32,000 nucleotides of DNA from Kineococcus radiotolerans SRS30216 = ATCC BAA-149 (GTDB lineage: Bacteria; Actinomycetota; Actinomycetes; Actinomycetales; Kineococcaceae). Location: positions 270,001-302,000 of the forward strand of contig NC_009664.2 of assembly GCF_000017305.1 (NCBI RefSeq). The letters run 5' to 3'. The notes under the pieces are model-generated. The model did not search any database, had not been told where the DNA came from, and saw only the letters and a list, made by a program, of their open reading frames with translations. Positions within the stretch are counted from its first letter, which is position 1, and every line of letters starts with the position of its first letter. This document shows positions 25,278-32,000 of this stretch, piece after piece. The translations under genes and the position numbers were made by a program.

Positions 25278-26285
25278 TCACGGGGCGGGAACGACCGGCG
25301 GTGACAGGACCGCCGCCCCCGGGCGCACCGCGGCCACGGCCACCGCGGTCGCGGCGGCGACGAGGGCGTCGTCGTGGTCGGCGTCCTCGGCGTCGCGGTC
25401 GGACATGACGACCAGGACGAGCGGAGCGCCGGCGGGGGGCCACACCACGGCGACGGCGTTGCGGGTGCCGTACCCCCCGGCGCCCGTCCGGTCCCCCACG
25501 ACCCACCCCTCGGGCACACCGGCGCGGATCAGCGCGTCCCCGGTGGTGTTGGCGCGCATCCAGCCGACCAGCACCGCGCGGTCCTCCTCCCCCAGCGCGT
25601 CCCCGAGGGCGTAGGCGTGCAGGTCGGTGGCCATCGCCCGGGGGGTGCTGGTGTCGCGGACGTCACCGGGAGCGGCCTCGTTGAGCGCGGTCTCCGTGCG
25701 CTCGGGATCGGTGACCGTGTCGCCGAGCTCCCGCAGCGCGGACTCGAAGCCGCCGGGACCACCGAGGTGCTCGAGGAGGAGGTTGGCCGCGGTGTTGTCG
25801 CTGACCGTCGTGGCGGCGGCGGCGAGGTCGCGCAGGCTCATCCCGGCGCCGACGTGCAGCTCGGTGACGGGCGAGTGGTCCACGAGGTCCTCGGCGGTGA
25901 AGGGGACGACCTCGTCGAGCTCCTCGGCGCTCGTGCGGTCCAGGACCGCGGCGGCGGCGAGGACCTTGAAGGTGGAGGCGTACGCGAACCGCTCGTCGGC
26001 GCGGTGGACGACGCTCGCCCCGGTGCCCGTGTCGAGCGCGAACACGCCGAGGCGGGCGTCGAACTCCCGCTCCAGCCGGGCGAGCTGCGCGGCCACGTCC
26101 GGTGCCGCCGCCGGGGGCGGGGCGCCGGGCGTCACCGCCGGACCCGTCACCGCCGGACCCGTCACCGCGGGACCCGTCACCGCGGGAGCGGGCGCGGTGC
26201 CCCCACCGCCGCAGGCCACCAGGACGGGCAGGACGAGCGCGCCGACGATCGCGGCGGGAACGCTCCGGCGCCGGTGCTGCCTCAT
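25278..26285 (-). CDS. Class A beta-lactamase, predicted lipoprotein
   Basis: From the ATG at 26285 it reads [25 protein letters not shown] (lipobox LVAC). The class A motifs are ASTFK (S70xxK), SDN, ETALNEA (E166..N170) and RTG in place of KTG. Confidence 0.9.
26131..26190. repeat. 4 x 15-bp tandem repeat inside the beta-lactamase gene, encoding the (PAVTG)n linker after the lipobox
   Basis: The units are GTCACCGCCGGACCC x2, GTCACCGCGGGACCC and GTCACCGCGGGAGCG, read directly from the sequence. Confidence 0.9.
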
Positions 26286-26535
26286 GCCCGTGGTCCCCCC
26301 CTCGACGTGTCCCCGCCGCGGGAGCCGGCGGTGGGGCCATTCGAGCAGGTGTCCCGCCCGGGGTGCTCCAGGGCGCGCCGCCGGGAGGCCGCGACGGCTC
26401 AAGGCCCCCTGCGCCGCGACCGACAACACGGGTGGATCGAACCACCGGTCCAGTCTCAGCGGAGGCCACGGTCGCCCGGTGAGGACGCCGCGCGGAGGCC
26501 CGCCCGGTGCTGGCGACGTCCAGGGGAGCACCACG

Positions 26536-28089
26536 ATGCCGTTCCGCGCCGTCCGCCGCGCGCAGGAGGAGGCTGCCGCGACCACCGCGGAGTCCCGCGC
26601 CAACATCGCCGCCATCGGCGCGGTCATCACCGCCCTCGGCGCCGCCACGACCTCCACCCAGGCCGTCGAGATCGCCCTGGACGAGGTGCGCGCGCGCTTC
26701 GGCTGGGCCTACGCCTCGTACTGGAAGCTGGACCCCGCCGCCGGGGTCCTGCGTTTCCAGCAGGAGTCCGGCGACGCGGGCGAGGAGTTCCGCCGCGTCA
26801 CCCTGGCCGCCTCCTTCGCCGAGGGCGTCGGCCTCTCGGGGCGGGCCTGGCGCACCCGCGACCTGGTCTTCGTCCCCGACCTGGCCGAGGTGGCCGACTG
26901 CGTGCGCGCCCCCGCCGCCCAGCGCGTCGGGGTCAAGTCCGGCATCTGCTTCCCGCTCCTCGCGGACGGGCGCGTGGTCGGCACGATGGACTTCTTCACC
27001 ACCGAGACCCTCGACCCCTCGCCGGAACGCCTGGACACCCTGCGCGCCATCGGCGCGCTGGTCTCCCAGGCCCGCGAGCGGATCGCCGCGACCGAACGCA
27101 CCACCGCCTCCGTCCAGGACGCCGAGGCCCTGGCCGTCGTCCTGCAGGAGGTCTCCACCGCCGCCACCCGCACCGAGGCGCTGGGGCGCGCCCTGGACGC
27201 CATCCGCACCGGCTTCGGCTGGGCGTACGCCTCGTACTGGAAGCTGGACCCCGCCGCCGGGGTCCTGCGCTTCCAGCAGGAGTCCGGCGACGCGGGCGAG
27301 GAGTTCCGCCGCGTCACCCTGGCCGCCTCCTTCGCCGAGGGCGTCGGCCTCTCGGGGCGGGCCTGGCGCACCCGCGACCTGGTCTTCGTCCCCGACCTGG
27401 CCGAGGTGGCCGACTGCGTGCGCGCCCCCGCCGCCCAGCGCGTCGGGGTGAAGTCCGGCATCTGCTTCCCCGTCCTGGTCTCCGGCCAGGTCGTGGGGAC
27501 CATGGACTTCTTCGCCACCACCACCCTGGTCCTGTCCGACTCGCGGGAGCACGCGCTGCGCAACACCGCCCTGCTCCTGGGCCAGGCCCTGGAACGCTTC
27601 GGCTCGGCCGACAAGCTGGCCAGCGCCGGGCAGGAACTGGTCGCCTCCATCGGCGAGGTCGAGCGCAACGTCGTCTCCGCCACCTCGGTGGTGGCCCGCG
27701 GTCAGGAACTGACCCAGGAGGCCAACCGGCGCGTGAGCGAGCTCGGGGAGTCCTCCAGCCGGATCAGCGCGGTGGTCAAGACGATCCAGGCCATCGCCGC
27801 GCAGACCAACCTGCTCGCGCTGAACGCCACCATCGAGGCCGCCCGGGCCGGCGAGACCGGCCGCGGCTTCGCGGTGGTGGCCGACGAGGTCAAGGAACTG
27901 GCGATGGAGACGGCCACCGCGACCAAGGACGTCGACGAGCGGGTCCGGGCCATCCAGGAGCAGGTGGAGCACGTCGTCGGCGCGCTGGGGCAGATCAGCG
28001 AGGTCGTGGAGGAGATCGACCGCACCCAGGCCGTGATCAGCGGCGTGCTGACCGAGCAGACGGCCGTCACCCGCGCCATCCTGGGCTGA
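26536..28089 (+). CDS. Soluble GAF-GAF-MCP-signalling-domain protein (cytoplasmic chemoreceptor-like)
   Basis: The ATG at 26536 has GGGGAG 7 nt upstream. There are no TM segments and no HAMP domain. Two GAF domains are followed by a short MA domain containing [37 protein letters not shown]. It is the in-frame tail of track ORF 25627..28089. Confidence 0.9.
26698..26954 (+). repeat. Copy A of the 257-bp near-identical intragenic direct repeat (core of GAF domain 1)
   Basis: 254 of 257 nt are identical to 27214-27470 at an offset of 516 bp (172 codons). The 3 differences are all synonymous third-position changes. Confidence 0.95.
27214..27470 (+). repeat. Copy B of the 257-bp near-identical intragenic direct repeat (core of GAF domain 2)
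   Basis: See copy A. The flanking parts of the two GAF domains are clearly diverged. Confidence 0.95.
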
Positions 28090-28394
28090 CCCCGGACCAC
28101 CGCCGCGACGGCGCGGCGAGGGGCCCGCGGCACCTCCGCGACACCGCCGCGACAGGCTCGCGACGTGCCCGGGACGCGGGCACCCCGTCGGCTACGGTGG
28201 CCCCCTCTCCGAAGGGATCCCCGGCATGTCCTCCAGCGCCACCGCCCCCACCGCCGCGCGCGTCGCTCCCCCGCCGCGGCGTCGCGGCGGTCCGCCGGGA
28301 CCCCCCGCCGAGCCGGCCACCGCCGCGCACCCCTGACCCGCCCCCGCACGGTCCTCCCCACGGCCTCCTCCCCCGCAGCCCAGGAGCTCGCACG

Positions 28395-30044
28395 ATGCGC
28401 CCCACCCCCTGGACCGTCCGCCCCGTCCCCACCGTCTGGCTGGACGCCACCACCGGTCAGGGCGTCACCGACTCCGGCGCTCGCGTCACCCCCCGGCTCA
28501 CCGGCCGCCGGAAGCGGCCCACGCTGGTGGACCTGCTGGACACCGCCCACAACCTCTCCGCCGAGCGCATCATGCTCACCGGCAAGCTCCCCACCGCCGA
28601 ACCCGGCCGCCCGCACTGGCTCATCGCCGAGACCCCCTCGTGGACCTCCCCGGGGCACTGGCTCGGCTCCCCGCCCACCGGGCGCTTCACCCACGACGTC
28701 ACCGGCCGCCACCTGGAGGTCCGCACCGCCGCGGAGTGGTTCCCCGTCGAGGGCCTCACCCCCGACCAGGCCCGGCAGGCGTGGGTGACGACCACCGAGG
28801 CGGTCAAGGGGGTGGAAGACATGGAGCTGCTGAAGTCCCCCGCCGCGACCGGCGCGCAACTGTGGGCCCGTTCCCTGCCCCGCACCCTCGACCCCGAACC
28901 GCTGCCCGACGACGTCGCCGAACTGCTGCACCGCACCTCGGGGCAGCACCGCATCGAGCACCTCACCACCGGACCCGCCGCCTGCGGGTGCGGGGCGTGC
29001 CGGCCGCTGGTGGACCTGGGGGCGACCCCCCGCGGGGGGTTCGCCTACGTCGACGGGCGGTTCATGTACGCCTCGCTGTGCCGCGAGCTGGGCAGCGGGC
29101 CGGTCACCCGCCTCACCGCCGCCCAGGGCCAGGAGCTGCTGGAGACCGACCCCTACGCCCGGGCCCGGTACCGGGTCCGCTTCACCGTCCCGGAGTGGTG
29201 GGACCACGTCGGGGTCCTGCCCGTCGCGCACGAGACCGTCGACGCCGGCTGGCACTACCCCAACGTGCCCGGCGCGAGCGCGGAGACGTGGGCCGACGGG
29301 GTCGAGGCGAAGATCGCCCACGACAACGGCTGGGACGTGCAGGTCCTGGAGGGCCTGCGGTTCACCAGGGGCCGACTGCTGGACACCTGGGCGGACCGCC
29401 TCAAGCGGGCCCGCGAGCGCCTGGCCGGCCACGCCGAGCTGGACCCGGTGGTGCGCTCGGCGGCCGTGGCCGCGGTCCGCGGCATCCTCATCCAGGGCAT
29501 CGGCGCGTTCGCCTCCCGGGGCCGGGAGACGACGCGGGTGGTGTGGTCGGCGCGCGAGGTCCCCCCGGAGGCGGCGTCGACGGTGGTGCGGCACGGGGAG
29601 GCGTTCGTGTACCGCCTCCCCAGCCGGCAGCCCGGCGGGCAGGCCGCGGCCCTGTACCGCCCGGAACTGGCCGCGCAGGTGTGGGCGCGCGGCCGGGCCC
29701 GGGTGCTGGAGTGCCCCGCGGCCCTCCCCCACCGCCCGGGGGCGCCGCGCCCGGTGGTGGGGGCGCTGCAGGTGGACCCCGCGCAGCTGCTGGCCGTCAA
29801 CGGCGACGCGATCTACACCACCGCCGTGCCCGCGTGGTCGCTGCCCACCGCCCACGGCGGCGGCGACGACGGCGCCGTGGGGCGGATGCGCCTGCAGGGG
29901 TGGCTGGGCTCGGTGAAGCTGCCCGCCACCGCCGCCGAGCGCAACGCGCTGCGGGGGAAGGCGGAGGCCGCGGGGATCGCGGAGGCCCTGGCGGCCGCGG
30001 GCGCGCCGCAGGCCGGCCCGGAGCAGGAGCGGGCGCGTGCCTGA
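28395..30044 (+). CDS. Hypothetical 549-aa protein; by-eye homologue of phi29-type (protein-primed) family B DNA polymerases with substituted catalytic motifs
   Basis: The ATG at 28395 has AGGAG 8 nt upstream. GC3 is about the host level. Motif-like strings occur in PolB order: VWLDATT, AHNLSAERIML, FAYVDGRFMYASL, EGLRFTRGRLLDTWADRL, AVRGILIQGIGAFAS, QVWARGR and LAVNGDAIYT. The confidence value refers to this being a real CDS; I would put the functional call at about 0.45. Confidence 0.8.
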   Translation: MRPTPWTVRPVPTVWLDATTGQGVTDSGARVTPRLTGRRKRPTLVDLLDTAHNLSAERIMLTGKLPTAEPGRPHWLIAETPSWTSPGHWLGSPPTGRFTHDVTGRHLEVRTAAEWFPVEGLTPDQARQAWVTTTEAVKGVEDMELLKSPAATGAQLWARSLPRTLDPEPLPDDVAELLHRTSGQHRIEHLTTGPAACGCGACRPLVDLGATPRGGFAYVDGRFMYASLCRELGSGPVTRLTAAQGQELLETDPYARARYRVRFTVPEWWDHVGVLPVAHETVDAGWHYPNVPGASAETWADGVEAKIAHDNGWDVQVLEGLRFTRGRLLDTWADRLKRARERLAGHAELDPVVRSAAVAAVRGILIQGIGAFASRGRETTRVVWSAREVPPEAASTVVRHGEAFVYRLPSRQPGGQAAALYRPELAAQVWARGRARVLECPAALPHRPGAPRPVVGALQVDPAQLLAVNGDAIYTTAVPAWSLPTAHGGGDDGAVGRMRLQGWLGSVKLPATAAERNALRGKAEAAGIAEALAAAGAPQAGPEQERARA

Positions 30045-30774
30045 GGATCCCCCCGCCCCCCGCAGCGCGGCGGACCTCGTCGCCGAGCTGCGCGCCTACG
30101 GCATGAGCGTGGCCGAGATCGCCCACGAGCTGCAGCGTTCCCCGCGGATGGTGCACAAGATCGTCCGGGGGGAGAGCAGCGGCCGGCTGTACGTGCCGAC
30201 GCTGACCGAGCTGGTGGAGACCGGGCAGGCCCGCAGCCGCCCCCCGCGCCGCCGCGGCCGCGACGGCGAACCGGTCCGCGTGCGGGCGCCCCGCGGCGCG
30301 GCAGCGCCGACGCGGGTGCCCGACGTCGACGACGAGCAGCCCGCCCCCGCCGGGGCCGGTCCCGCGGCGAGCCCCGGGGCGGGCCGCTCCGCGGGGGGAC
30401 GCAGCCGGTTCAGCGACAGCACCGCCTACCTGCCCGGCGGGGTCCGTCAGCACACCGTCACCGGGCCCCGTTCGGAGGGGCCGGGGCGCGAGCGGACCCG
30501 CCAGCGCCTCATGGACGTGCTGCGCGGCGCCGCGCGCGGTCAGCGCCACGGCCGCAAGAACGTCCGGTTCCGGGTCACCCTGCGCGACGGGACGTCGGTG
30601 GAGGTCGGGTCCAAGGGCGGGTACTCGGTGTCGGCCGCCCTGGCCCGTTCGCGCGGTGAGGGCGACGACCCGCTGCGCTGGCTGCGCGAGGAGATCGCCG
30701 AGCGCAGCTACGTGCAGGCGCAGCTGCGGGCGAAGCAGCTGGACATCGTGGGCGTGGAGGCGACGATCTTCTGA
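30037..30774 (+). CDS. Hypothetical 245-aa protein with an N-terminal HTH, an Arg/Pro/Gly-rich linker and a C-terminal domain
   Basis: The GTG at 30037 overlaps the upstream stop by 8 nt (GTGCCTGA). GC3 is above 90%. The HTH-like segment is DLVAELRAYGMSVAEIAHELQRSPRMVHKIV. The C-terminus is KNVRFRVTLRDGTSVEVGSKGGYSVSAALARS...DIVGVEATIF. Confidence 0.7.
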   Translation: MPEDPPAPRSAADLVAELRAYGMSVAEIAHELQRSPRMVHKIVRGESSGRLYVPTLTELVETGQARSRPPRRRGRDGEPVRVRAPRGAAAPTRVPDVDDEQPAPAGAGPAASPGAGRSAGGRSRFSDSTAYLPGGVRQHTVTGPRSEGPGRERTRQRLMDVLRGAARGQRHGRKNVRFRVTLRDGTSVEVGSKGGYSVSAALARSRGEGDDPLRWLREEIAERSYVQAQLRAKQLDIVGVEATIF

Positions 30775-30782
30775 GCGCCCGG

Positions 30783-30801
30783 CCGCGGGGCGTCCCCGCG
30801 G
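30783..30801 (+). terminator. Hairpin CCGCGGGG-cgt-CCCCGCGG, 9 nt after the 30774 stop
   Basis: It has a perfect 8-bp stem and the same arms as the palindrome at 1080-1096. Confidence 0.4.
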
Positions 30802-30884
30802 GTGGTCCTCGTGCTCGTGGTCACCTCGCGCCCACCCGGTGTGCGACGATCGTCACCAGAACTCCTCGAGCGAACAGGACTGGC

Positions 30885-31355
30885 ATGGCCACCACGAGGC
30901 GCACCCAGTGCGCCAACAAGATGCCCTGGCCCGCCGGCAACCACCGGAGCCTCGACCGCTTCCTCGACGACGCCGAGCGCGCGGGCGTCCTCGACACGAT
31001 CGCGAACCACCCCGGGGCCGCGACCACCCTGGCCCTTCCCCCGCACGGCCTCGACGCCGCCACCGTGGGCACCGTCCTGCGCCACGCGGACTCCCGCGAG
31101 CAGGGCCTGGCCTTCCCCCTGGGCTGGCAGCTGTGGCAGCAGGAGGTGGGCGACCAGTACCCCGACCGCGCCGCCGCCGCCGAGGGCTTCGCCGAGTTCA
31201 CCCAGGAGCTCACCGGCGACCACTGGGAGAGCGGCGAGGGGACTCCCGCCGAGGAGCTGCTCGCCGGCTTCATCAACGCCGCCGTGGCCGCGCGGGCCGA
31301 GGGCACCAGCACCCGCGACGCCCTGGACGCGCTCACCGGCACCACCTCGGAGTAG
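30885..31355 (+). CDS. Hypothetical acidic 156-aa protein
   Basis: The ORF is in the track and GC3 is about 98% in this frame. I recognise no family. Confidence 0.7.
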   Translation: MATTRRTQCANKMPWPAGNHRSLDRFLDDAERAGVLDTIANHPGAATTLALPPHGLDAATVGTVLRHADSREQGLAFPLGWQLWQQEVGDQYPDRAAAAEGFAEFTQELTGDHWESGEGTPAEELLAGFINAAVAARAEGTSTRDALDALTGTTSE

Positions 31356-31365
31356 CACCTCCCCC

Positions 31366-31400
31366 GCCGACGGGCCGGGCCCCGCGCTCAGCCCGTCGGC
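31366..31400. terminator. Hairpin between convergent genes, overlapping the doc-like stop codon
   Basis: GCCGACGGGC pairs with GCCCGTCGGC across 15 nt, giving a 10-bp perfect stem. Confidence 0.4.
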
Positions 31401-31813
31401 GGCAGCGGGCCCCGCCAGGGCTCGCCCAGGGTGATCTGGCGCAGGTGCAGGGCGATGACGTCGACGTCGTCGAGGCCGTTCTCGACCAGCCCCACCAGCC
31501 GCTGCCCGTACTCCGCGTCCGGCTGCACCGTCCTGACCCCGTTGCGGTCCAGCGCGGCCAGGGCCACGAACAACCCGATGCCGGGGTTGAGGGCACCCGC
31601 GAAGGGTCGCGTCGTCACGATGGCGTGCATGAGGGCCGCCGCCTGCTCGTGCTCCCCGCGGTAGATCCGCTCGCCGTCGACGTCCAGGGAGGGCCGCAGC
31701 GCCGCGGCGGCCAGGGCTCCCACGTCGCGGATCACGACGGGTCCCTCCGCCAGCCAGTCCGCCAGCTCGCTGATCTGCGCGACGCTCAGGAAACGGGGGT
31801 GCTCCGGGATCAC
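31388..31813 (-). CDS. Doc/Fic-family (death-on-curing-like) toxin homologue with a degenerate Fic motif
   Basis: ..FLSVAQISELA......AAALMHAIVTTRPFAGALNPGIGLFVALAALDRNGV.. is colinear with P1 Doc (..HIFNDANKRTALNSALLFLRRNGV..). I prefer the GTG at 31813 (GTGA overlap with the antitoxin stop) over the track start at 31834. Confidence 0.75.
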   Translation of the reverse strand: MIPEHPRFLSVAQISELADWLAEGPVVIRDVGALAAAALRPSLDVDGERIYRGEHEQAAALMHAIVTTRPFAGALNPGIGLFVALAALDRNGVRTVQPDAEYGQRLVGLVENGLDDVDVIALHLRQITLGEPWRGPLPPTG

Positions 31814-32000
31814 CGGGAGCGCAGCGCTTCCCACAGGGTGGGGTTGCTGGCCGCGATGCGCTCGGCGATCGTCGCGATCGCCTCCTCCTGCGCGCGGGCG
31901 GACTGCTCCAGCAGCGCCTCGAAGAGCTTCTGCCGCGAGACCCCGGGGTTGCGGCGCCGCAGGTCCTCCAGCATGCGCTCGTGGTCCCCGGAGAGGCGGA
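31810..32000 (-). CDS. Ribbon-helix-helix-type antitoxin (5' end outside the window)
   Basis: I translated the minus strand by hand: ..LSGDHERMLEDLRRRNPGVSRQKLFEALLEQSARAQEEAIATIAERIAASNPTLWEALRSR*. This is an RHH-like strand-helix-helix followed by a tail. The stop overlaps the doc-like start. Confidence 0.6.
   Translation of the reverse strand, partial: RLSGDHERMLEDLRRRNPGVSRQKLFEALLEQSARAQEEAIATIAERIAASNPTLWEALRSR

Follow-up and report, generated by a model that had tools for sequence, protein, structure and literature searches.

Genes A and B of Kineococcus radiotolerans, a probable protein-primed telomere-replication module of the Tac/Tpc type

The chromosome of the actinobacterium Kineococcus radiotolerans was shown to be linear by Southern hybridisation, and the 2008 genome paper found no orthologues of the Streptomyces terminal proteins and stated that "unique mechanisms must protect" its telomeres (PMC2587704). 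Which genes might maintain these ends is the question raised by a locus in the stretch of DNA analysed here, a window of 32,000 nucleotides from strain SRS30216 (NC_009664.2, positions 270,001 to 302,000), to which all positions below refer. Two overlapping genes of this locus, here named A and B, and their neighbour C correspond to ABS03415, ABS03414 and ABS03413 on the 4,761,183-bp chromosome. An initial annotation, made from the sequence alone, had described A as encoding a protein resembling family B DNA polymerases (PolB) and had likened the three genes to polymerase/terminal-protein or tap-tpg operons. We now consider it probable that A and B form a protein-primed telomere-replication, or end-patching, module of the Tac/Tpc type that serves the linear replicons of K. 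radiotolerans. All coordinates given for the region from 28395 to 31355 held when re-read from the letters of the window, and the features on which the argument depends are the following.

28382 to 28386, + strand: Shine-Dalgarno-like AGGAG, 8 nt 5' of the gene A start codon, by direct reading of the sequence.
28395 to 30044, + strand: gene A, 549 amino acids (ATG at 28395, TGA at 30042-30044), predicted to encode a highly diverged family B DNA polymerase of the protein-primed type (Tac-like).
30037 to 30044, + strand: overlap of A and B, 8 nt, GTGCCTGA, with the start of gene B inside the stop region of gene A.
30037 to 30774, + strand: gene B, 245 amino acids (GTG at 30037, TGA at 30772-30774), basic, candidate terminal protein (Tpc-like).

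The N-terminal MRPxPW of the 549-residue form of gene A is kept in homologues, which favours this start over the one called in GenBank (ABS03415, 615 amino acids); judged from the sequences, the latter probably lies too far upstream. Through the 8-nt overlap the two genes are translationally coupled.

The identity of the gene A product was revealed by its predicted structure. An AlphaFold2 model built from 33 homologues reached a mean predicted local distance difference test score (pLDDT) of 91 and a predicted template modelling score (pTM) of 0.88. When this model was compared with the Protein Data Bank (PDB) using Foldseek, phi29 DNA polymerase took the first four places (E 5e-12 to 1e-10, probability 1.0, TM-score ~0.5, ~590 aligned columns), its complex with the terminal protein (2ex3) among them, and other family B polymerases came next in the ranking. 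Among the predicted viral structures of BFVD, 40 matches were obtained at E <= 1e-3, all of them to protein-primed PolBs (pPolBs), led by those of phi29-like podoviruses, GA-1, tectiviruses (Toil, a phage of the actinobacterium Rhodococcus, being one), His1, adintoviruses, adenoviruses and bidnaviruses. We regard this model-based evidence as decisive for a PolB fold, and specifically for that of pPolBs; confirmation comes from structure only. Sequence identity to phi29-type polymerases is ~10%, gene A gave nothing in NCBIfam, PHROGs or PADLOC, and the relationship to PolB is visible only through the modelled structure and a weak Pfam match. The PolB-like call of the initial annotation on positions 28395 to 30044 was thereby borne out.

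Three segments of gene A can be matched to the polymerase motifs. Canonical PolBs carry DxxSLYP as motif A, KxxxNSxYG as motif B and YxDTDS, with two Asp, as motif C. The assignments below rest on the sequence pattern and on the secondary structure of the model, not on residue-level superposition.

29040 to 29072, + strand: motif A-like F216-AYVDGRFMYA-226, with Asp220 as putative metal ligand and Tyr225 as putative steric gate.
29472 to 29525, + strand: motif B-like fingers helix, residues 360-377 (ALRAILIQxIGAFASRGR), with Arg362 and Gly370, inside helix 351-371 of the model.
29796 to 29822, + strand: motif C-like beta-hairpin, residues 468-476 (INGDAIYTT), with Asp471 and, in the model, flanking strands 465-469 and 472-475.

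D220, Y225, G370 and D471 are invariant in the three family alignments (A1, A2 and A5), which include Cutibacterium and Streptomyces homologues at 29-38% identity, and R362, like G370, is invariant or nearly so. The catalytic residues are unchanged across three orders. In residues 1-215, which would hold the exonuclease domain, neither A2 nor A5 contains an invariant Asp or Glu; D17 is nearly invariant, and Thr occupies the position of the ExoI Glu. According to these alignments the carboxylates of the exonuclease are unconserved, and its site has been lost. Since the residues of the polymerase active site are kept and those of the exonuclease are not, gene A is predicted to polymerise DNA without proofreading.

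Genes A and B are inherited together. A profile of the B family, built from confident neighbours, was run against all open reading frames (ORFs) of the fetched loci, and a B homologue was located directly 3' of A in 35 of the 38 evaluable species-representative loci, mostly with an overlap of 1, 4 or 8 nt. Such an arrangement, recovered for the most part on linear plasmids of actinobacteria, is far beyond chance. In K. radiotolerans itself a second A-B pair is carried by the 182-kb linear plasmid pKRAD01, where the B copy is Krad_4613; identity to the chromosomal pair is 72% for A and 65% for B. Each linear replicon of the strain thus has a copy of its own.

The chromosomal pair is subterminal. 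In a sister strain of K. radiotolerans the locus is the 255th gene of a 2.36-Mb contig, at a distance of 267 kb from its start, and by accession arithmetic the SRS30216 locus would lie ~270 kb from the chromosome end. Kineococcus aurantiacus has an orthologous and syntenic A-B-C locus, followed by the same acetyltransferase and M28 peptidase genes, ~310 kb from the end of a 4.85-Mb contig, and in Kineococcus sp. R86509 the A-B pair is found ~175 kb from the end of a 5.18-Mb contig. The suggestion of the initial annotation that the locus might serve end maintenance of a linear replicon therefore meets a linear chromosome (PMC2587704) and a subterminal location in three Kineococcus species. In R86509 a gene of 240 amino acids (locus L074, 598-1320) overlaps the start of A, and on Streptomyces and Kitasatospora plasmids the gene directly 5' of A encodes a DNA-binding protein; the gene in this position may be a lineage-specific upstream partner.

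Beyond Kineococcus, every named source organism of A homologues was an actinobacterium. The annotated homologues are all called 'hypothetical', or 'Mucin-19' in Streptomyces, and a precomputed Pfam domain is lacking in all of them. When 1.84 billion cluster representatives were searched with a profile of the Streptomyces-type homologues, 732 were retrieved at E <= 1e-3 and 537 at E <= 1e-30. By tblastn, 55 plasmids of PLSDB carry A. They include pLMV7, pLMA7 and pJD12 of Micrococcus, pCSL1 of Clavibacter sepedonicus, 27 Streptomyces and Kitasatospora plasmids, and plasmids of Curtobacterium, Microbacterium, Glutamicibacter, Paenarthrobacter, Rothia, Cutibacterium acnes and C. modestum.

This distribution follows linear replicons. 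The Streptomyces and Kitasatospora A-B plasmid records that were opened are mostly annotated as linear, and the terminal inverted repeat (TIR) of pCSL1 is perfect over at least 1.5 kb. Plasmid pSCO2 of S. collinus (19 kb), in a record flagged circular, reads GGGGGGCAGAGG at each end, and pJD12 has C-GGGGGGG-CAG at its right end. Telomeres of the Tac-Tpc class begin with 4-6 G. The records of pFRL3, pFRL6, pRVR1, pKVP2 and the Paenarthrobacter and Rothia plasmids have neither G-run nor TIR at their ends; they are probably truncated assemblies and as such uninformative. The C. acnes plasmid has been described as linear (PMC3666418). The three Micrococcus plasmids have 5'-bound terminal proteins, no tpg homologue was found on them and their mechanism was called unknown (PMC11707576). 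Separate RepA genes are present on the C. acnes plasmid (PMC3666418) and on the Rothia plasmid (record inspected here), which argues that A-B is not the initiator at an internal origin. As for pSCO2, many close homologues of its polymerase lie on contigs of 14-19 kb, and the plasmid (locus L011) also encodes a GH25 lysozyme, Lsr2 and many tiny ORFs; these contigs give the impression of a family of small linear elements, phage-like or plasmid, whose ends carry G-runs.

The product of gene B is the candidate terminal protein. It is basic, with an isoelectric point (pI) of 11, and contains a helix-turn-helix (HTH) at residues 11-62 (Pfam HTH_38, E 0.004), followed by the basic motif P69-RRR-x3-G-x4-VR83, in which R71 and R83 do not vary among 50 non-redundant sequences. 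Residues 85-123 form a disordered linker rich in Pro and Ala, which leads to a C-terminal alpha/beta domain with a Gly-rich loop, GxKGGY196, whose Tyr196 is a candidate priming residue. The AlphaFold2 model of this protein had a pLDDT of 75. Gene B is homologous to the gene that lies 3' of the Tac-like gene on pSCO2 and other Streptomyces linear plasmids. Residues 125-245 (window 30409-30771) faintly resemble the little-finger domain (polymerase-associated domain, PAD) of the Y-family polymerases Dpo4, Pol iota and Pol kappa, at levels that are not significant (probability <=0.82, E >= 0.06).

The closest characterised system appears to be Tac-Tpc of the linear plasmid SCP1 of Streptomyces coelicolor, a functional analogue of tap-tpg; the analogy drawn in the initial annotation was apt. 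In vitro, deoxynucleotidylation of Tpc requires Tac of SCP1 and needs nothing more than this enzyme (PMC4513846). Like A-B, the SCP1 genes form a two-gene operon on a linear actinobacterial replicon, with a gene for a large telomere-associated protein followed by one for a terminal protein of ~200-260 amino acids (Huang et al. 2007; Yang et al. 2015, PMC4513846), and neither system has tap or tpg. The median distance between Tac and Tpc genes is 1 base (preprint); the 8-nt overlap of A and B agrees with a spacing of about 1 base or less. Tpc has an HTH and a separate basic cluster resembling a nuclear localisation signal, with the sequence 'ARVRRR' (PMC2425503). This sequence resembles the motif A[RK]VR of the gene B family, and both proteins have the HTH first and the basic cluster after it. 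Tac-Tpc pairs reside on linear replicons, on chromosomes preferentially in the terminal 10%, and the Kineococcus locus, on a linear chromosome and subterminal, conforms to this.

The main link is offered by pSCO2, for which SCP1-type telomeres, an absence of Tap and Tpg and the presence of tac and tpc have been reported (PMC8743542). Its only large gene, which encodes 647 amino acids and occupies the region 1.9-3.8 kb from the left end, is homologous to A (tblastn E 3e-28), and a B homologue of 205 amino acids overlaps it by 4 nt, so that homologues of A and B sit at an SCP1-type (G-run) telomere. Kitasatospora viridifaciens DSM 40239 was reported to use an adjacent Tac-Tpc pair (PMC7188733); this strain has an A-B pair on pKVP2, with locus tags that differ from those of the report. 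It is strongly suggested by these homologies and published descriptions, and not demonstrated, that A belongs to the Tac family and B to the Tpc family. Unlike the SCP1 pair, the A-B pair of the window has a host from Kineosporiales instead of Streptomycetaceae and is chromosomal, and the Streptomyces homologues have an N-terminal extension of ~100-200 amino acids that is missing in gene A. The literature also gives Tac no polymerase motif, whereas the gene A family has the modelled pPolB fold. According to PMC4513846, Tap and Tac lack a polymerase motif and Streptomyces genomes encode no B-family polymerase, from which a new polymerase class was proposed.

Other systems share part of these properties. 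With the pPolB and terminal protein (TP) systems of phi29 (gp2/gp3), PRD1, tectiviruses, adenovirus and fungal linear plasmids, gene A has in common an exonuclease-like domain, palm, fingers and thumb, an Asp and the steric-gate Tyr in motif A, an Asp in motif C, and an adjoining coupled gene for a protein of ~250 amino acids. It differs from them by xGDA in place of DTD in motif C, by the exonuclease carboxylates, which they keep, and by scoring below the Pfam threshold. In addition, their TP gene is upstream of the polymerase gene, whereas B is downstream; gene B encodes an HTH and has no structural likeness to the phi29 TP; and their replication is processive with strand displacement, whereas A-B would likely carry out short end-patching of a replicon replicated from within. 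Tap-Tpg of Streptomyces telomeres likewise consists of an operon for a large priming enzyme and then a small HTH terminal protein (Tpg, ~185 amino acids), subterminal on linear replicons, but it has no sequence relationship to A-B; neither A nor B matched Tap or Tpg in NCBIfam or Pfam. The piPolBs of pipolins and the casposon PolBs are, like gene A, divergent PolBs of bacterial mobile elements, including those of Actinobacteria. Unlike it, they have active exonuclease motifs, integrases or Cas1 alongside, no partner resembling an HTH terminal protein and no tie to linear replicons.

Taken as a telomere module, A-B could act as follows. With dnaA/oriC at the centre of the chromosome (PMC2587704) and RepA on the A-B plasmids, replication most likely starts internally. 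Bidirectional replication from the central oriC would leave a 3' single-stranded overhang at each chromosome end. The gene B protein would bind the telomeric DNA through its HTH and basic motif, dock on the gene A polymerase and offer a hydroxyl side chain as primer, for which Tyr196 is the candidate. The polymerase would then add the first deoxynucleoside monophosphate (dNMP) to the gene B protein and extend a short piece of DNA, after which host polymerases could complete the gap and the gene B protein would stay attached to the 5' end, capping it. Such short, non-processive synthesis would be in keeping with the lost exonuclease site. Initiation of the phi29 and PRD1 type by 'sliding-back' requires a reiterated terminal base, and the terminal G-run fits initiation of this kind in the mechanism proposed.

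Several observations weigh against this reading. For gene A, the Pfam family DNA_pol_B_2 scores 13.6 bits (E 0.031), under its 25.8-bit cut-off; it is the only family to recur, with matches below threshold in 6 of 15 diverse members (best E 4.4e-4). The profile of the gene A family gave only noise against the PDB sequences, and its hhalign comparison with the phi29 polymerase sequence, which had been checked against 1XHX beforehand, gave no signal (probability 0.2). In motif C only D471, within xNGDA, is an invariant Asp, with N, Q, F, R or T in place of the first one, and in motif B the positions of the canonical Asn and Tyr are hydrophobic. The search with the gene B model returned no significant match to any known terminal protein, that of phi29 included. 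Its C-terminal domain has no universally conserved Ser, Thr or Tyr in the family alignment: Tyr196, conserved at 88%, is replaced in the Streptomyces homologues, so that the priming residue cannot be named from conservation alone. Three of the 38 loci, all from Kineococcus, depart from the usual order, with no B within 4 kb in K. gypseus and SYSU DK005 and B upstream in SYSU DK025. Several A-B plasmid records are flagged circular or have uninformative ends, and the orthology to SCP1 Tac (CAC36646.1) and Tpc (CAC36648.1) is indirect, via pSCO2 and DSM 40239; a search for homologues of the pSCO2 protein gave no S. coelicolor entry, and the clusters of 20 Streptomyces-type representatives contained no SCP1 accession. 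Finally, some family members, known from metagenomes (P0252, P0253, P0301 and P0317), are 1000-1500 amino acids long and have the PolB-like domain C-terminal to other replication domains, in fusions with RepB-primase, D5_N and a DUF5906/SF3 helicase, with Toprim or with DUF3854; the primase-helicase fusions suggest nucleic-acid priming in those members. The fusions also reinforce the view of the PolB-like domain as a working replicative polymerase module of mobile elements, and they point to a wider, undescribed set of mobile-element replicases.

Such fusions, typical of mobile-element replicases, are also what would be expected if A-B were instead a module for initiating replication that came from an actinobacterial plasmid, integrated or ancestral, with an internal Rep-like or a phi29-style whole-replicon role and no function at chromosome ends, the chromosomal copy being a relic. 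Most homologues do reside on conjugative plasmids beside ParA and FtsK/TraB genes, a Doc-like addiction pair flanks the locus in the window, and transposases flank the R86509 copy. We nevertheless consider this explanation unlikely: the chromosomal locus is orthologous and syntenic in K. radiotolerans and K. aurantiacus, it lies among ordinary housekeeping genes and its GC content is like that of the host, the A and B proteins are intact with their catalytic residues kept, A-B plasmids have a separate RepA (PMC3666418) and dnaA/oriC is at the chromosome centre (PMC2587704). An enzyme that has lost its exonuclease site would be better suited to the synthesis of short patches than to copying a genome of 4.8 Mb. 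The 'degenerate or domesticated' relic envisaged in the initial annotation does not agree with catalytic residues that are invariant across three orders, with only the exonuclease site lost, nor with the maintenance of the pair on both linear replicons.

The non-canonical motifs B and C and the lost exonuclease site could also mean that gene A encodes a catalytically dead PolB-fold scaffold or DNA-binding telomere factor, priming being left to another polymerase such as a Y-family DinB. DinB1 or DinB2 is needed for end patching in Streptomyces (PMC4513846), and on a Paenarthrobacter plasmid a Y-family polymerase and UmuD lie beside A-B. However, two metal-binding Asp and a steric-gate Tyr that are invariant in the alignments examined would not be expected of a dead enzyme, the profile search gives 732 cluster representatives of the family, and purified Tac alone deoxynucleotidylates Tpc (PMC4513846), which bears on A provided that it is a Tac homologue; we therefore hold this explanation to be improbable. 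An anti-phage defence or repair function built on a polymerase, also raised in the initial annotation, appears most improbable. The operon is small and adjoins a toxin-antitoxin pair, and AbiE genes lie 3' of A-B on Curtobacterium plasmids, but none of the three genes A, B and C matched a PADLOC model, the defence genes nearby are not kept from locus to locus, and the distribution tracks linear replicons rather than defence islands. The statement of the initial annotation that nothing in the window could decide between these roles no longer holds once the related loci are considered, and end-patching of the Tac/Tpc type remains the explanation we favour. The Paenarthrobacter plasmid is NZ_CP101183.1, where the Y-family DNA polymerase and UmuD genes adjoin an operon of A, B and a small gene (L066, 3089-8105).

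We class A-B as a protein-primed end-replication system of the Tac/Tpc type. Its novelty lies in a chromosomal location in a non-streptomycete, in its extension to plasmids of Micrococcales and Propionibacteriales and in an enzyme recognisable as an exonuclease-less pPolB. In the literature searched, no paper assigns a PolB fold to Tac or to the gene A family. With slightly better than even confidence we propose a broader hypothesis, namely that the Tac enzymes of SCP1-class telomeres are extremely diverged, exonuclease-less pPolBs and the Tpc-like HTH proteins their terminal proteins, so that one PolB/TP family caps the Kineococcus chromosome and the linear plasmids of Micrococcales, Propionibacteriales and Streptomycetaceae. 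A widespread, unannotated enzyme of pPolB fold with a coupled HTH protein would then sit on these linear replicons, and bacterial chromosome end-patching would descend from protein-primed replication of the phage or plasmid type, an evolutionary bridge from the protein-primed replication of viruses to the upkeep of linear bacterial chromosomes. Four published points would be revised: the 'unique mechanisms' of PMC2587704, the missing terminal-protein gene and unknown replication mechanism in the 2025 study of Micrococcus plasmids (PMC11707576), the new polymerase class of PMC4513846 (2015) and the 2026 census of bacterial polymerases, in which Actinobacteria typically lack B-family enzymes (PMC12926913). 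The pair supplies concrete catalytic residues (D220 and D471) and a candidate primer protein.

Downstream of gene B the locus contains the following features, which, together with the 8-nt overlap, are all present where the initial annotation had placed them.

30783 to 30801, + strand: GC hairpin with an 8-bp stem and a 3-nt loop, CCGCGGGG-CGT-CCCCGCGG, 9 nt past the gene B stop.
30885 to 31355, + strand: gene C, 156 amino acids, acidic (pI 4.7), no family assignment, a Kineococcus-specific neighbour.
31388 to 31834, - strand: Doc-like toxin gene (PHROG 577, E 6e-7; no Pfam match).
~31810 to 32000, - strand: small upstream partner of the Doc-like gene, running past the window end, from the gene calls of the sister strain.

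The conserved unit consists of two genes, A and B, and not of three, as far as homology searches tell. Of the three-gene module first proposed, the co-occurrence of A and B in relatives was recovered, whereas the only orthologue of gene C found is that at the same position in K. aurantiacus (69% identical). Gene C had no match in Pfam, NCBIfam, PHROG or PADLOC, and no homologue was detected beside the pKRAD01 copy, in ~60 other loci or in any other genus; its membership of the module was ruled out, as it has no homologue outside Kineococcus chromosomes. In many Micrococcales loci another family of small proteins, of ~100-200 amino acids and unrelated to gene C, lies beside A-B, either overlapping the end of B or divergent upstream (L066 5362-5748, L067 12594-12893, L007 12414-13037 and Microbacterium loci). 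Its members may be a third component in those lineages, with the reservation that the iterative search possibly drifted. In K. gypseus, SYSU DK005 and SYSU DK025 (loci L020, L021 and L022) the A orthologue is 87-91% identical and nucleotide homology to the window ends with A; B-like genes are present elsewhere in at least two of these genomes.

The hairpin at 30783-30801 may mark the end of the operon. Its local fold has an energy of -32.9 kcal/mol (z = -1.7) and it has no U-tract; a strong terminator was ruled out because of the missing U-tract and a z-score that is unexceptional for DNA of 77% GC. The Doc-like pair is not conserved with A-B and is missing from the orthologous locus of K. aurantiacus, which points to a recent insertion beside A-B-C. 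Beyond the toxin gene (31388-32000, - strand) follow the partner of 68 amino acids and then an HTH_23-like gene of 117 amino acids. GC content at the locus is 0.77-0.785, as compared with ~0.75 for the window, with no compositional anomaly, in line with the earlier remark that composition gives no sign of recent transfer. Two long ORFs that overlap gene A, of 1556 amino acids (25374-30044, + strand) and 717 amino acids (27702-29855, - strand), are spurious and a by-product of the ~77% GC. Upstream of gene A, a gene for a chemoreceptor of the GAF-GAF-MCP (methyl-accepting chemotaxis protein) type (26536-28089) contains two direct repeats of 300 nt each (26642-26941 and 27158-27457), 93% identical and 516 nt apart, which indicate a recent internal duplication of one whole GAF domain.

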